Source: Patescibacteria group bacterium
GTDB lineage: Bacteria; Patescibacteriota; Patescibacteriia; 2-01-FULL-39-33
Direction of reading: 5' to 3'
DNA length: 64,000 bases
Assembly: GCA_041645075.1 (NCBI GenBank)
Contig: JBAZQS010000003.1
Coordinates: 6,710-70,709, forward strand
In this document: positions 49,676-53,286 of the stretch, piece by piece
Numbering within the stretch: the first letter of the stretch is position 1
Layout of the letters: the number at the start of each line of letters is the position of its first letter
Notes under the pieces: model-generated
The model's database searches: none
Seen by the model: only the letters and a program-made list of their open reading frames with translations
What the model was told of the DNA's origin: nothing
Made by a program: the position numbers and the translations under genes

Positions 49676-50398
49676 TTGGAAAATTTTAAAAAAAATATAG
49701 AAAAATTTCTTCCATTTTTGGAAGATCTGCGTGAACGATTGTATCGCGGGGTAATTTTATTCGTCGTATTCTTTTTGGTCGGCTTTCTCTCTTCTGGAAT
49801 AATTCTAAAAAAAATATTAAAACTTGTTCATATCGATCAGGTGGTAATCGCCACTTCTTCACCATTTCAGTTTACCGAGATAGCGATGGATGTTGGGTTT
49901 TTCCTCGCGATTATGGTTTCTGTTCCGTACATAATTTATAGCTTTTATGTCTTCATTATACCCGCATTAACTAGAAGCGAGAAAATAAAACTTTTAAAAT
50001 CTATTCCTTTAAGCGTTGGATTATTCATTGTTGGATCTTTTTATGGGTTTTTTATTCTTTACTATGCTTTAGGATTATTAGCTTCTGTCAACATCAGTTT
50101 AGGGATCGCCAATTTTTGGAATATCGGTCAATTTTTAACAGAAATGCTTATTACCTCCGCTTTGTTGGGATTGGTCTTTGAGCTTCCTCTCCTCTTGTCT
50201 CTGCTTATAAAACTGGGGATAACTACACCCCAAACCCTCAAAAACAATAGGCGCGTCGCTTATTTTTTAACCATTTTTCTGACCGCTTTACTTCCGCCAA
50301 CCGATGGTGTATCATTAATAGCGATGGCACTGCCACTTGTGCTACTATACGAGGGGACGATATTATTAAATAATAAAAAAACAATATGTTTGGATTAG
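49676..50398 (+). CDS. tatC: Sec-independent translocase TatC
   Basis: 6 TM. FxxxxFxxGxxFxYF-like segments SFYGFFILYYALG... Confidence 0.8.
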   Translation: MENFKKNIEKFLPFLEDLRERLYRGVILFVVFFLVGFLSSGIILKKILKLVHIDQVVIATSSPFQFTEIAMDVGFFLAIMVSVPYIIYSFYVFIIPALTRSEKIKLLKSIPLSVGLFIVGSFYGFFILYYALGLLASVNISLGIANFWNIGQFLTEMLITSALLGLVFELPLLLSLLIKLGITTPQTLKNNRRVAYFLTIFLTALLPPTDGVSLIAMALPLVLLYEGTILLNNKKTICLD

Positions 50399-50550
50399 GA
50401 CCTAGAGAACTAATTATTTTGGCCGTTATCCTCGTTTTGCTTTTTGGCGCAAAGAAGATTCCAGAACTTGCTCGCGGTATTGGGGAGGCTGTCAGACACA
50501 TCAGAAACGGTTTTTCTGATGACAAAGACAAAACAGATAAAAAAAGTTAA
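50386..50550 (+). CDS. tatA: TatA/E copy 1 (54 aa)
   Basis: MFGLGPRELIILAVILVLLFGAKKIPELARGIGEAVRHIRNGFSDDKDKTDKKS. Not in the ORF track (<60 aa). Overlaps the tatC stop. Confidence 0.75.
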   Translation: MFGLGPRELIILAVILVLLFGAKKIPELARGIGEAVRHIRNGFSDDKDKTDKKS

Positions 50551-50652
50551 ATAGCGTAACCACTGTTGTCATCTTTACCTCCACTAACCGATGGTGTATT
50601 ATTAATTAAAAAGGTTGATCTTATTAAATAATTAAATAATAAAAAATATTAT

Positions 50653-50817
50653 ATGTTTGGATTAGGACCTACAGAAATAATTATTTTTGTCGCTATCATC
50701 GTTTTGCTTTTTGGTTCAAAAAAGATCGCGGATCTTGCTCGCAGTGTCGCGGAGGCTGTTAAAATCCTCCGGGGTAGTTTTTCAGACGAAAAAGACAAAA
50801 CAGACAAAAAAAATTAA
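50653..50817 (+). CDS. tatA: TatA/E copy 2 (54 aa)
   Basis: MFGLGPTEIIIFVAIIVLLFGSKKIADLARSVAEAVKILRGSFSDEKDKTDKKN. Part of a ~260-bp tandem duplication unit that includes a tatC 3'-end fragment. Confidence 0.75.
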   Translation: MFGLGPTEIIIFVAIIVLLFGSKKIADLARSVAEAVKILRGSFSDEKDKTDKKN

Positions 50818-50909
50818 ATCGCGTAACCACTGTTGACCTCCACTAACTGATGGTGTATTTTTAATTAAAAAGGTCGATATTATTAAATAATTAAATAATA
50901 AAAAATATT

Positions 50910-51083
50910 ATGTTTGGATTAGGACCTAGGGAACTAATTATTGTGGTCGGTATCCTCGTTTTGCTTTTTGGTTCAAAAAAGATCGCGGATCTTGCTCGCA
51001 GTGTCGCGGAGGCTGTTAAAATCCTCCGGGGTAGTTTTTCAGACGAAAAAGACAAAAAAGACAAAACAGATAAAATTGCGTAA
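50910..51083 (+). CDS. tatA: TatA/E copy 3 (57 aa)
   Basis: MFGLGPRELIIVVGILVLLFGSKKIADLARSVAEAVKILRGSFSDEKDKKDKTDKIA. Confidence 0.75.
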   Translation: MFGLGPRELIIVVGILVLLFGSKKIADLARSVAEAVKILRGSFSDEKDKKDKTDKIA

Positions 51084-51101: not shown

Positions 51102-51740
51102 ATGAAAAATTGGATACGTATTTTTTTGGTATGCTTTGTTTTGATTGGTGGCACGGCGTTTTTTGCTTTTTATTCAATCAATCAATTAAATAAAGCATTT
51201 GATGATATAGAAGCTTCGTTTTTTGCAACCGTAAAAATACCACAAGTTCATTTTTCCGACAAAACAAATAAAGAGCAAATTCCAACCTCTACCCCAGAAA
51301 CTATTCCAACCTCTACCCCAGAAATCATCTCAACCTCAGCAACATCAACTGATTTGGATCTATCTTTCATTTTTCCAAAAAAAAACAATGAAGTTTACAT
51401 TGGTTGCACGTACCAACTTTCCTTTCAATCATCCACGACAATACGTTCATTGGAAATTGCTCTCCTTGATGATGGTACGAATGAAACCATTGAGCCGAGT
51501 GCAAGCGGTATAGCGAGGGAAAACAAAATAGAACCAAATTCTCAAAGTTTAGATTGGAAAGTGGGAGTAGTTTGGCCGGGTAAATATTATATCAAAGTGT
51601 CAAACATTAATGGTGTTGAATTAGAAAATTATAGTAAAACCTTTACGATAAGAAAAATGCCAAAAGGTATAAGTGTTGACGAAAGAGAAAAAATTTGCAA
51701 GGAATCGGACGGTTCATTTTATTTATTGGATAAGTTATAG
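51102..51740 (+). CDS. Secreted/membrane-anchored hypothetical protein with TSTPETIP repeats
   Basis: N-terminal signal anchor. IPTSTPETIPTSTPEIIS repeats resemble those of the peptidoglycan hydrolase. Confidence 0.45.
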   Translation: MKNWIRIFLVCFVLIGGTAFFAFYSINQLNKAFDDIEASFFATVKIPQVHFSDKTNKEQIPTSTPETIPTSTPEIISTSATSTDLDLSFIFPKKNNEVYIGCTYQLSFQSSTTIRSLEIALLDDGTNETIEPSASGIARENKIEPNSQSLDWKVGVVWPGKYYIKVSNINGVELENYSKTFTIRKMPKGISVDEREKICKESDGSFYLLDKL

Positions 51741-52116
51741 ATTCTGATTAATTCTTTGACTGCTTTTTCATCTTCACCCTTGCTCCGCATTTGATGTTTG
51801 ACGTGAGAGCGCAAGTGATTTTCGAGAAGGAAGCTGGCGAGGCTTTAGTGGAGCGTATGATTCAATTCAGAGCCACCACGCGTTCCGCGCGTGCGATTAG
51901 TCTGAATTACTTTCAAAAAATGTTCGAACTTCGTCCAAAAAACACCGCCAGATTTCCAAGTTTGAACCTTAGTGTTTGCAACGTGTTTTGACCCCCTTGG
52001 GGGTTCAGGAGGTTCGATCTTGGCAACTTGAAGGTCTATAAGAACATCAAAGACTGGCGTCCATATAGGCGTCAGTTTTTGATTTCTGCGGAGTATTTTA
52101 TTTTCTACTTTAACTG

Positions 52117-52150
52117 TAGCCCCATGGGGAATCGAACCCCAATTTCCTCC
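52117..52150 (-). other. tRNA 3'-half fragment (anticodon-stem 3' strand GGAGG, variable loop, T-arm TGGGGTTCGATTCCCCA, acceptor TGGGGCT, discriminator A)
   Basis: Read on the minus strand as GGAGGAAATTGGGGTTCGATTCCCCATGGGGCTA. No 5' half adjacent. Confidence 0.5.
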
Positions 52151-52174
52151 GCCTGCCCTGTTAAATAAATTCTG

Positions 52175-52246
52175 TACCGCCGCGGGGAATCGAACCCCGG
52201 TTTTCTCCGTGAGAGGGAGATGTCCTAGCCGCTAGACGATGGCGGC
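52175..52246 (-). tRNA. tRNA-Glu (anticodon CUC), 72 nt, no encoded CCA
   Basis: GCCGCCATCGTCTAGCGGCTAGGACATCTCCCTCTCACGGAGAAAACCGGGGTTCGATTCCCCGCGGCGGTA. Anticodon stem TCTCC/GGAGA, loop CTCTCAC (U33, CTC, A37), T-loop TTCGATT. Acceptor stem G1·U72 with an A7·C66 mismatch. Confidence 0.65.
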
Positions 52247-52261
52247 TTAAATTTAACAGGG

Positions 52262-52300
52262 TGAAAGAGGGAAATGTCCTAACCATTAGACGATGAGGCC
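52262..52300 (-). other. tRNA 5'-half fragment (acceptor GGCCTCA, D-arm GTCT/AATGGTTA/GGAC, anticodon 5' stem TTTCC + loop start CTCTTTC)
   Basis: Minus strand GGCCTCATCGTCTAATGGTTAGGACATTTCCCTCTTTCAC. Overlaps the last 7 codons of the GIY-YIG ORF. Confidence 0.5.
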
Positions 52301-52554
52301 AAAATGTTTAATTTATAATAATATACTTTTAATTTTTTCCTTCCAGCACATGATTTCCAGTATTTTTCTCTGATTAAAGCCGTTTCTAAATTATTAGCCC
52401 TCTCCAAAATATAACACTTAAATTTTCCAAAGTGTTTGGTTGTGTTTACCTGTCCGGCTCTATGTTCTCTAACTCTCCTACATATATTTTCAGAAAATCC
52501 GATGTAGGTATTTTTAGAATCCTCACTTATTAACCAATATATGAAATATTCCAT
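52279..52554 (-). CDS. GIY-YIG nuclease family protein (~91 aa from MEYFIYW; the ORF track's longer N-terminus runs through a hairpin and is unlikely)
   Basis: YFIYWLISEDSKNTYIGFSENICRRVREHRAG...TKHFGKFKCYILE...ALIREKYWK, the GIY...YIG...R...E core. C-terminal residues LASSSNG are encoded by the tRNA-fragment sequence. Confidence 0.7.
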   Translation of the reverse strand: MEYFIYWLISEDSKNTYIGFSENICRRVREHRAGQVNTTKHFGKFKCYILERANNLETALIREKYWKSCAGRKKLKVYYYKLNILASSSNG

Positions 52555-52589
52555 TTTTTTATAACAATTACCCGTTACAACTCGGAAAC

Positions 52590-52635
52590 GAGACAAACCC
52601 GCCTCGCGTCGATGAGCGAACGCGAGTCGAGGCGG
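52590..52635. terminator. Strong hairpin cccgcctcgcgtcgatgagcgaacgcgagtcgaggcggg
   Basis: 15-bp stem read directly. Separates the GIY-YIG gene from the divergent gene. Confidence 0.45.
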
Positions 52636-52707
52636 GGACAATTGTTATTATTCTACATTTATATTATAATAAAATCAAGAGTTAGGTTAAAAATTAATTT
52701 TAAAAAT

Positions 52708-53286
52708 ATGAATTCAATCGGGGGCATTAAATTAATAATAATTATTCTGATTATTATTGTGGTCGGCTTTTCCTTGTTTATCTGGGGCTATGCTTTTGGC
52801 TTAAAAGCCACCGGCATCGATGGTTTTGCCCAGGGCTGGGATGCGGCGCGCCAAGCCATTGAAAAAACCGGCCTGTTTCCCAATAATAAGGAACCGCTCT
52901 ATAATATTGCCGGCAAAATCACGGGCATTAATAATAATATCATTACCATAGAAGCGTCCCCGGTAGTTAATAACCCATTGGCCAAGCAAGCGCCCATTAA
53001 AAGAACGATTACGGTCGGCAATGACACGGTTTTTATAGAACAAAAGCAAAAAAGCCCCGAGGAATTTATGAAGGAACAAAACGAGTTTTTTCTAAAAAGA
53101 TTAAAAAATCTTGAAAATCAGGCCGAAAGCGCTCCTCCATTATTATATACGGAAAAAAGAATTAAATTCTCTGACTTGAAGGTTGGCGACAAAATCAATG
53201 TGGTCGCAGAAAATGATATAAAATACGCGACGCAAATCACGGCCAAGGAAGTTAGAAAAAATACCCAAGCAATATCAGGACAATAA
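52708..53286 (+). CDS. Signal-anchored hypothetical protein (start taken at MNSIGG; the ORF track start at 52612 lies in the hairpin)
   Basis: TM IKLIIIILIIIVVGFSLFIWGYAF, soluble C-terminal domain. Confidence 0.45.
   Translation: MNSIGGIKLIIIILIIIVVGFSLFIWGYAFGLKATGIDGFAQGWDAARQAIEKTGLFPNNKEPLYNIAGKITGINNNIITIEASPVVNNPLAKQAPIKRTITVGNDTVFIEQKQKSPEEFMKEQNEFFLKRLKNLENQAESAPPLLYTEKRIKFSDLKVGDKINVVAENDIKYATQITAKEVRKNTQAISGQ

Follow-up and report, generated by a model that had tools for sequence, protein, structure and literature searches.

Integrative elements such as phages and genomic islands target tRNA genes, and their insertion is harmless as the element restores a working gene; they carry an integrase, insert near the 3' end of the tRNA gene and duplicate a short 3' segment of it as direct repeats. 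In phage T4, SegB, a free-standing GIY-YIG endonuclease encoded in a tRNA gene cluster, has been shown to recognise a tRNA gene motif and to spread itself together with neighbouring tRNA genes (PMC2330249). The locus described here lies in a stretch of 64,000 nucleotides (nt) from an ultra-small bacterium of the Patescibacteria group (GenBank assembly GCA_041645075.1, contig JBAZQS010000003.1, positions 6,710 to 70,709; hereafter the window), in which an open reading frame (ORF) for a stand-alone GIY-YIG nuclease runs into the first half of a tRNA-Glu gene that is itself split by a second, complete tRNA-Glu gene. The best explanation for this locus is that tRNA-Glu genes were replaced here by cassettes of a mobile, Patescibacteria-specific family, which left a scar in layers. 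The phenomenon is real and widespread, and it is apparently undescribed; no description of a GIY-YIG/tRNA-Glu module, of the palindrome that accompanies it or of nested tRNAs was found in the literature searched.

Among described systems, the locus most resembles a free-standing GIY-YIG homing system with a tRNA gene as both target and cargo; membership in this group is not established, since a DNA-binding domain is missing from the protein, and the solved structure nearest to it is that of a UPF0213 protein of uncharacterised function. As in T4, a GIY-YIG gene is found among tRNA genes, and SegB targets a conserved tRNA gene motif and displaces the tRNA region of the recipient (PMC2330249). 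Moreover, sporadic presence beside a conserved target gene whose resident allele has been displaced, a Seg-like trait, was seen in 21 of 24 Patescibacteria loci with homologous ORFs, with a 5' fragment upstream. By comparison, SegB is phage-borne and has an extra DNA-binding region, whereas the ORF studied here encodes a bare catalytic domain of 91 amino acids, is located on a bacterial chromosome and overlaps a tRNA. In addition, a palindrome and displaced tRNA fragments go with the ORF here, tRNA genes end up nested, and no relatives of the ORF were found in viral contigs.

All elements of the locus were placed on the minus strand (positions 52636 to 52117 of the window), in the order palindrome, ORF, tRNA-Glu 5' half, 11-nt arm, intact tRNA-Glu(CUC), complementary arm and matching 3' half. 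The palindrome, which is GC-rich, imperfect and 39 nt long (CCCGCCTCGACTCGCG...CGACGCGAGGCGGG, positions 52598 to 52636, no strand assigned), is located upstream of the ORF (positions 52279 to 52554, ATG at 52554, stop codon TAG at 52281-52279). The last 22 nt of the ORF are positions 1-22 of the outer tRNA, such that the protein ends in ...LASSSNG* and its stop codon is the TAG of the D-loop GGTTAG. The outer 5' half (52262 to 52300) comprises the acceptor strand GGCCUCA, the D arm, the anticodon-stem strand UUUCC and a loop, CUCUUUCA, with 2 extra nt. The 5' arm CCCTGTTAAAT (52251 to 52261) is a perfect 11-bp complement of the 3' arm ATTTAACAGGG (52156 to 52166), and TTAA and CAGAATTT separate the two arms from the inner tRNA on its 5' and 3' side, respectively. 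The inner tRNA-Glu(CUC) (52175 to 52246), which was identified by ARAGORN and by Rfam (RF00005, 54.5 bits, E=8.8e-11), has the acceptor strand GCCGCCA with an A7xC66 mismatch; this mismatch is not common in this tRNA-Glu family, whereas the G1.U72 pair that the inner tRNA also has is, and 54.5 bits is the second-lowest Rfam score among the tRNA-Glu genes scored (52.9 for L023). Following the 3' arm, CAGGC (52151 to 52155), whose CAGG fits a CA(A/G)G motif found at this place in most related nested loci, leads into the outer 3' half (52117 to 52150), which is composed of GGAGG, the variable loop AAAU, the T arm UGGGG-UUCGAUU-CCCCA, the acceptor strand UGGGGCU and the discriminator A. This acceptor strand pairs with the outer 5' acceptor at 7/7 positions and with the inner acceptor at just 5/7. 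The original prediction, which was made from the sequence alone, had listed every element from the ORF to the 3' half, and each was found where it had been placed; the complementarity of the halves (GGCCUCA with UGGGGCU, 7 bp with 2 G.U; UUUCC with GGAGG, 5 bp with 2 G.U), G1.U72 in both tRNAs, the reading of the ORF into the 5' half and the description of the locus as a rearranged tRNA hotspot were likewise borne out. The intervening sequence, put at ~115 nt, measures 106-111 nt, and the palindrome, which had gone unmentioned, is also part of the module.

While ARAGORN and Rfam called only the inner tRNA at this locus, a search of 10 kb with nhmmer, using a tRNA-Glu profile built from 56 intact genes, matched the two outer halves separately (E=1.6e-7 for the 5' half and E=2.9e-7 for the 3' half). 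In the minimum free energy (MFE) fold of the 196 nt (z=-3.0), one cloverleaf extends from the lengthened anticodon arm of another, and the outer halves, present in normal (non-permuted) order, are brought together by the 11-bp helix as well as by acceptor and anticodon stems. When the halves were rejoined in silico, retaining each possible prefix and suffix of the junction in turn, ARAGORN recognised a tRNA body in every case. Taken together, the separate profile matches, the nested fold and the recognition of the rejoined halves place the structure of the locus beyond chance.

The ORF, the only GIY-YIG gene in the window, encodes a protein that matches Pfam PF01541 (E=1.1e-11) and is 100% identical to a protein of an NCBI Patescibacteria metagenome-assembled genome. 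A protein search identified 26 homologues (48-65% identity), all with PF01541 and, where the source named an organism, all from Patescibacteria; overall, GIY-YIG homologues are 43-65% identical to the ORF protein. Residues Y6, Y17, G19, R27, H31 and E63, which represent catalytic-motif columns, are invariant in 24 homologues. A match to the group I intron endonuclease family TIGR01453 is weak and below threshold. The closest solved structure is UPF0213 protein BH0048 (PDB 1ZG2, E=4.5e-4), likewise a stand-alone GIY-YIG domain of ~100 amino acids; the similarity is weak and the function of this YhbQ-type protein uncharacterised, so that the comparison says little on mechanism. To our knowledge, no linkage of UPF0213/YhbQ-type proteins to tRNA genes is known.

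Further analysis of the loci of homologues, six identified by exact protein look-up and 24 by genome scan, revealed a recurring module consisting of tRNA-Glu positions 1-22, the GC-rich palindrome, positions 23 to ~33, a short spacer, the GIY-YIG ORF and an intact tRNA-Glu (UUC or CUC). In 21 of the 24 genome loci the tRNA-Glu starts within ~0-40 nt of the end of the ORF or overlaps it, and ~10 ORFs end within the D arm of the tRNA, which accounts for the common C-termini ...SSSNG* and ...PPSSSG*. Upstream of nearly all homologous ORFs is a tRNA-Glu 5' fragment, interrupted by the palindrome and ending at about position 33-35, in the anticodon loop. As the acceptor of this fragment is unlike that of the downstream intact tRNA in five loci (L013, L014, L015, L017 and L021), the fragment represents the remains of another, displaced gene rather than a slipped copy; in L005 and L009 the 3' part of the displaced gene is also retained downstream of the intact tRNA and pairs with the upstream fragment. 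The overlap of ORF and tRNA and the order of ORF and palindrome are kept across proteins that are just 43-65% identical. Records of these genome loci are titled Komeili-, Morani-, Buchanan-, Kuenen-, Portnoy-, Falkowbacteria and others, with a few third-party bins named otherwise. Viral contigs yielded neither true relatives of the ORF nor a nested tRNA-Glu, and a phage vector is therefore not supported.

The palindrome is present as a single copy in the 64-kb window (0 expected in shuffles) and is found upstream of nearly every homologous GIY-YIG ORF. It usually lies between GGTTAG and GAC of the displaced 5' fragment (tRNA-Glu positions 22/23), sometimes at 12/13, and was inserted without duplication, so that its removal restores the tRNA sequence; in the window, the surrounding tRNA sequence has nearly decayed away. 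At the same site the orientation is window-like in 10 loci and flipped in at least 8, which argues for a DNA-level element or a protein site over an RNA element. Like dispersed palindromic repeats (REP, RPE, Correia and MITE), which have terminal inverted repeats and insert in either orientation, it is an imperfect palindrome that occurs both ways round at tRNA position 22/23; assignment to these families, whose copies are numerous in a genome, was rejected, given the single copy in 64 kb and related copies found only in tRNA-Glu fragments by the ORF. Two or three hairpins, in the D, anticodon and T loops, were found in displaced tRNA copies of six loci (L010, L022, L023, L024, L028 and L034).

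Comparison with the closest relative of the ORF in the genome collection (L008, 63% identity), whose ORF is followed by an intact tRNA-Glu(CUC), revealed the origin of the outer tRNA. Positions 1-25 of the outer 5' half are identical to this ORF-linked tRNA (25/25), and the outer variable loop and 3' acceptor strand also match it. Therefore, the outer tRNA is the ORF-linked tRNA of this cassette family, later split. The outer anticodon arm is unlike that of L008 and resembles the inner tRNA (outer AUUUCC CUC[UU]UCAC GGAGG versus inner AUCUCC CUCUCAC GGAGA), and in 7 of 10 loci of the same junction type, by hand count, outer and inner tRNA share the anticodon stem while their acceptor stems differ. 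Judged from the sequences, co-conversion during break repair, or local gene conversion, would leave such a mosaic.

Nested loci were also found elsewhere. A metagenome scan for pairs of Glu-type D arms with a spacing of 25-55 nt, shorter than tandem genes would allow, returned 41 stretches, and parsing of these, in which complementarity was not demanded, identified 15 distinct fully nested loci besides the window, from other samples and assemblies; each has the full design of outer 5' half, arm, complete inner tRNA-Glu, complementary arm and outer 3' half. The 7 nt after each second T arm pair with the outer 5' end at 7/7 positions in 15 of the 16 loci (window included) and at 6/7 in the remaining one, and pairing arms flank the inner tRNA in 13 loci besides the window. 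Some 12 more loci have the outer 5' half only, or an outer 3' half broken by further hairpin insertions (L034 and L071); the outer 3' half is absent or broken in ~40% of loci. Multi-level nesting was found in L049, L068 and the window, and outer and inner tRNAs usually share one anticodon.

Two types of junction could be distinguished among these loci. The type found in the window is shared by L034, L035, L037, L039, L047, L050, L054, L060 and L066; its outer loops have 2-4 extra nt (CUC-UU-UCA, CUU-UU-UCA and UUU-UAU-UCAU), and its 5' arm usually starts with CCC(C)GC, with CA(A/G)G after the 3' arm. In the second type (L038, L041 and L052) the insert CCCGCCTGC...GCGGGCAGG is placed precisely between positions 34 and 35. 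The arms are AT-rich in L045, L046 and L068, and the anticodon is missing altogether in L046 and L068. The arm termini CCC(C)GC...GCGGG followed by CA(A/G)G, as well as the palindrome, recur at the same tRNA positions in distant lineages. By sequence motif, neighbours of nested loci are housekeeping genes, including TsaD- and HU-like ones (similarities that were not database-confirmed), and mobility genes are absent. In L046 (596-800) and L068 (3745-4000), a conserved insert separates the 3' arm from the outer 3' half and has a hairpin GGAATAG..TGTTCC followed by ACCCAAAT.GCG CAT; in L068 this insert is repeated further downstream, resulting in third-level nesting. The D-arm pair scan also returned simple tandem duplications of a tRNA 5' fragment before the same gene (L036, L043, L048/L064, L061 and L044/L056/L063), a different and more ordinary scar, and some of these contigs do not look like Patescibacteria.

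The findings above are best accommodated if tRNA-Glu genes were invaded in series by cassettes that each bring a substitute tRNA-Glu, probably with the nuclease as the driver, and if the halves are the displaced gene; the probability of this explanation is put at roughly 0.5. In a first layer, a cassette composed of the palindrome, the GIY-YIG ORF and its own tRNA-Glu, with the ORF stopping on the D-loop TAG, would have entered the genome. In a second layer, a cassette without an ORF, consisting of a complete tRNA-Glu(CUC) between complementary arms, would later have entered the anticodon loop of the layer-1 tRNA and split that gene, so that the inner gene would be the only working tRNA at the locus and the outer halves the displaced one. 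Insertion into an essential tRNA gene would be tolerated because the cassette supplies a replacement copy. The nuclease may cut tRNA-Glu DNA around the anticodon loop and the D loop, the palindromes and arms may represent cassette ends, and the cassettes could spread when breaks are repaired or by homologous recombination, the flanking anticodon arm being co-converted. This explanation is supported by the family-wide linkage of ORF and tRNA, by displaced fragments that end in the anticodon loop, by the mosaic outer tRNA, by the fact that in most loci excision would not restore a normal loop, and by the precedent of T4 SegB. Moreover, the series from intact halves through hairpin-riddled copies to loss of the 3' half is as expected of relics, and multi-level nesting is as serial invasion predicts.

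The original prediction had offered remnants of an integrative element as one of two readings, and the part of it that stands is the mobile insertion that displaced a tRNA gene. As with integrative elements, a tRNA gene was hit and carried tRNA sequence keeps a working gene; unlike them, the anticodon loop was the site of insertion, the insert brings an entire tRNA gene, and complementary halves of one displaced tRNA-Glu, not repeats, flank it. No integrase or other recombinase was found beside the locus, where only the tRNA lies between the halves, the ORF at 52612-53286 has only a sub-threshold match to KOW2_Spt5 and the ORF at 51102-51740 has no Pfam match, and no att-type direct repeats were found, the flanks being the 5' and 3' halves of one tRNA. 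A related genome with an intact tRNA at this position, which the same prediction had coupled with a simple tandem-duplication scar, does exist in L008, but the halves appear to derive from cassette insertion rather than from such a scar.

Several observations weigh against replacement by invading cassettes. Arms of one family occur around inner tRNAs with either acceptor type, so that arms and cargo are not a fixed unit, and no pair of filled and empty alleles for an arm-flanked cassette was found among the loci. A nearby GIY-YIG ORF, as detected with a subfamily profile, is present in just 5 of the 41 stretches, of which three are fully nested (L041, L052 and L065). The protein of 91 amino acids, essentially all of which is catalytic domain, has no separate DNA-binding domain, in contrast to known homing endonucleases, and its nuclease activity and target are predictions. 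The 2-4 extra nt in the outer loops are not accounted for by a cassette. In addition, when stems and arms of 14 loci were aligned by hand and evaluated with shuffled and slid controls, 96% of the cells were paired and both partners had changed in 23 of 27 pairs, far above controls. Likewise, the outer halves of L050 and L060 differ at 1 position while flanking and intergenic DNA is unalignable, the spacers of the inner tRNA are scrambled and TsaD is 80% identical; such a pattern suggests that an RNA is under constraint, unless re-invasion or gene conversion happens often. Pairing could, however, persist without any function of the outer tRNA, as the outer halves may be highly conserved host genes captured recently, as conversion from inner to outer gene may keep them intact and as spread may be limited to elements whose arms pair and whose homology is good. 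Upstream fragments that are truncated, and hence incapable of function, are preserved as well as the outer halves, and preservation alone is therefore no proof of function.

These observations give some weight to a functional tRNA within a tRNA, which is unlikely, albeit less so than the explanations considered further below. Here, the outer gene would be expressed, the arms would hold its halves together, RNase P and RNase Z would free the inner tRNA, and the remaining arms would be trimmed, after which the halves would either be joined by an unknown bacterial activity or act unjoined as a tRNA-like RNA. In addition to the clean nested double-cloverleaf fold, acceptor, anticodon and T stems and arms are 91-100% paired across the 14 loci (arms 91%; a C-G to U-A change in L066 is one compensatory example), and outer halves are as conserved as the inner tRNA between genomes with unalignable intergenic DNA. 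Moreover, exact removal of CCCGCC...GGGCAGG from L038, L041 and L052 restores a canonical 7-nt CUC or UUC loop, after which ARAGORN calls a tRNA-Glu, and hairpins elsewhere are placed at exact positions without duplication, as introns would be. By contrast, in the window and in every other locus of its junction type, excision yields a loop of 8-11 nt or one that lacks a Glu anticodon (in the window, no single excision yields a 7-nt loop with a Glu anticodon, and UUC occurs only in 8-9-nt loops), and the loop region varies in length and sequence among loci. The frequent loss or breakage of the outer 3' half and the occurrence of the palindrome in both orientations, which points to a DNA-level element, also argue against this explanation, as does the anticodon usually shared by outer and inner tRNA, which makes the outer one unnecessary. 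Target-site duplication was considered as a source of the extra loop nt and rejected; CA is found on both sides of the arms, yet no consistent duplication restores a normal loop.

Archaeal split and intron-containing tRNAs (e.g., in Nanoarchaeum and, with multiple introns, in Thermoproteales) are matured through a bulge-helix-bulge (BHB) motif, a splicing endonuclease and a ligase. The present loci resemble them in halves that a GC-rich helix beside the anticodon stem brings together and in hairpin-like insertions at exact positions of the D, anticodon and T loops; they differ in being bacterial, in having a whole tRNA in the insert and in that most do not regain a normal loop. Between anticodon stem and 11-bp arm, the junction in the window comprises CUCUUUCA (8 nt) on its 5' side and CAGGC (5 nt) on its 3' side, and inspection of the sequence and the MFE fold, rather than a dedicated motif search, revealed no BHB (two 3-nt bulges and a 4-bp helix) at this junction; BHB motifs drawn by hand for the window type and for the L038/L041/L052 type did not fit either. 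RNase III and kink-turn-like motifs were considered at the junction, with nothing convincing. We know of no bacterial tRNA splicing endonuclease.

A survey of tRNA introns in Patescibacteria has reported self-splicing group I introns of >200 nt at position 35/36 of tRNA-Asn and tRNA-Asp, with no mention of Glu, GIY-YIG, hairpins or nesting (PMC13011429). Those introns share with the locus described here the phylum, the anticodon loop and the failure of standard annotation to find the tRNA genes, while here the insert is 106-111 nt long, has no group I core and has a tRNA inside. Rfam searches detected only the inner tRNA at E<=10 over positions 51800-52800 and at the gathering threshold over the whole window, and only ordinary tRNAs at E<=0.01 in nine related loci, with no intron or ribozyme family. 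A group I intron was ruled out by the lack of a ribozyme and by an insert that is too short. The original prediction had also considered an intron-like, BHB or permuted tRNA; for this locus, that reading was not supported, since ARAGORN in intron modes (positions 52050-52400, relaxed thresholds) found the inner tRNA only, plus one spurious antisense call, Rfam was negative, no BHB was seen by inspection and no 7-nt Glu loop could be formed. The lack of support concerns this locus only; for the family as a whole, three loci regain a perfect loop, and stems and arms are paired with double changes.

A slightly more doubtful version of the functional explanation is that these loci represent a new kind of bacterial tRNA intervening sequence that encodes a tRNA, in which the arms would fold the precursor in such a way that RNase P and RNase Z excise the inner tRNA-Glu, the outer halves, once trimmed, would be joined or else serve as a tRNA-like RNA in two pieces, and the small hairpins of the D, anticodon and T loops would be introns of this class that lack a cargo. 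If so, two tRNA-Glu species would arise from one transcript, with neither a ribozyme nor an endonuclease motif of the archaeal type. A functional outer RNA would make this the first protein-dependent or RNase P/Z-dependent bacterial tRNA intron system and would bear on the origin of tRNA introns and split tRNAs. With respect to the possible identity of such a tRNA, the long ORFs of the window use GAA 530 times versus GAG 231 times, and the genome therefore needs a UUC tRNA. The outer gene was rejected as this tRNA-Glu(UUC), its loop being best read as an inner-type CUC loop with 2 extra U; the inner tRNA is not UUC, and the UUC gene probably lies outside the window. A separate observation concerns the nuclease gene: if the outer halves fold like a tRNA, a cut by RNase P at the 5' end of the outer tRNA in a co-transcript would strip the stop codon from the nuclease mRNA, and nuclease expression might then be inversely coupled to tRNA processing.

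Less probable again is a local rearrangement without a mobile element or nuclease, in which template switching, fold-back repair or gene conversion between tRNA-Glu genes would have created the nested structure and the GIY-YIG gene would merely be a frequent neighbour. Adjacent or paralogous tRNA-Glu genes do share an identical D-arm stretch of ~20 nt and many short inverted repeats, long stretches are identical between inner and outer tRNAs, and pure self-duplications were found at L036, L037/L049, L055 and L061. The 5' arm of the window aligns to tRNA positions 38-46 in a profile search, a hint of inverted duplication, and the T-loop element of L055 and L029 opens with the reverse complement of the T arm. 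Such rearrangements do not explain why the same arm termini and palindrome occur at the same tRNA positions in distant lineages, or why the ORF-tRNA overlap and the ORF-palindrome order are conserved at 43-65% protein identity, and chance would not repeatedly strike only tRNA-Glu. An assembly artefact, in the form of a chimera of two tRNA-Glu genes joined through common D-arm sequence, is very improbable: the two genes share a 9-nt identical stretch (ATCGTCTA..) and metagenome assemblies can mis-join repeats, but 9 nt is far below assembly k-mers, a mis-join cannot create complementary arms and a matching 3' half, the identical locus sequence is present in an independent European Nucleotide Archive assembly (L001), and the 15 further nested loci come from other samples and assemblies.

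If replacement by invading cassettes is correct, these loci would represent a selfish element that neutralises its own damage by replacing the whole essential gene that it breaks, in contrast to introns and inteins, which splice out, and to integrative elements, which repair the gene end only. The outcome would be Russian-doll tRNA loci, and the class of stand-alone GIY-YIG proteins of ~90 amino acids, which is large and uncharacterised, would gain a concrete candidate target in the tRNA-Glu gene. Nested loci mislead annotation, as split genes are missed and fragments are possibly called, which affects tRNA gene counts in Patescibacteria.

Among other elements identified beside tRNA genes, more distant GIY-YIG homologues directly follow tRNA-Met/tRNA-Asp in L027 (1264-1500) and tRNA-Pro/tRNA-Gly in L030 (1218-1500); downstream of each ORF the tRNA 3' end is present a second time, with a GC-rich hairpin inserted in it, and these look like sister modules on other tRNAs. 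Another element, non-coding and ~110-190 nt long, was found downstream of intact tRNA-Glu in L018, L020, L025, L029 and L055/L067 (e.g., L029, 1859-2020; L025, 1867-1985). Its opening sequence, GG(G)GAAT(C/T)GAAC, is the tRNA T loop and stem in reverse complement, it runs up to a second copy of the tRNA 3' end (ATTCCCC, acceptor strand and CCA), and it has no Rfam match; L025 and L026 are near-identical loci with and without it, respectively, and thus represent a presence/absence polymorphism.

In the window, a promoter-like site (TTAACC-16-TATAAT, positions 52663 to 52690, minus strand), identified by consensus match only, is located ~25 nt upstream of the palindrome and is a possible transcript start for the ORF and the tRNAs; with 5 such sites seen versus 3.5 expected from shuffles, the match is weak. 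Directly downstream of the outer 3' half on the minus strand, ~375 nt (positions 51741-52116) contain no convincing ORF; this stretch includes a GC-rich palindrome, CGCACGCGCGGAACGCGTGGTG, and the T-arm-like words AGATCGAACC and GTTCGAAC, and the tRNA-Glu profile detected no fragment in it. Farther along, positions 49676-51083 encode a TatC-like protein followed by three tandem TatA-like paralogues of 54-57 amino acids (named from sequence only), which have near-identical N-termini, MFGLGP(R/T)E(L/I)II.

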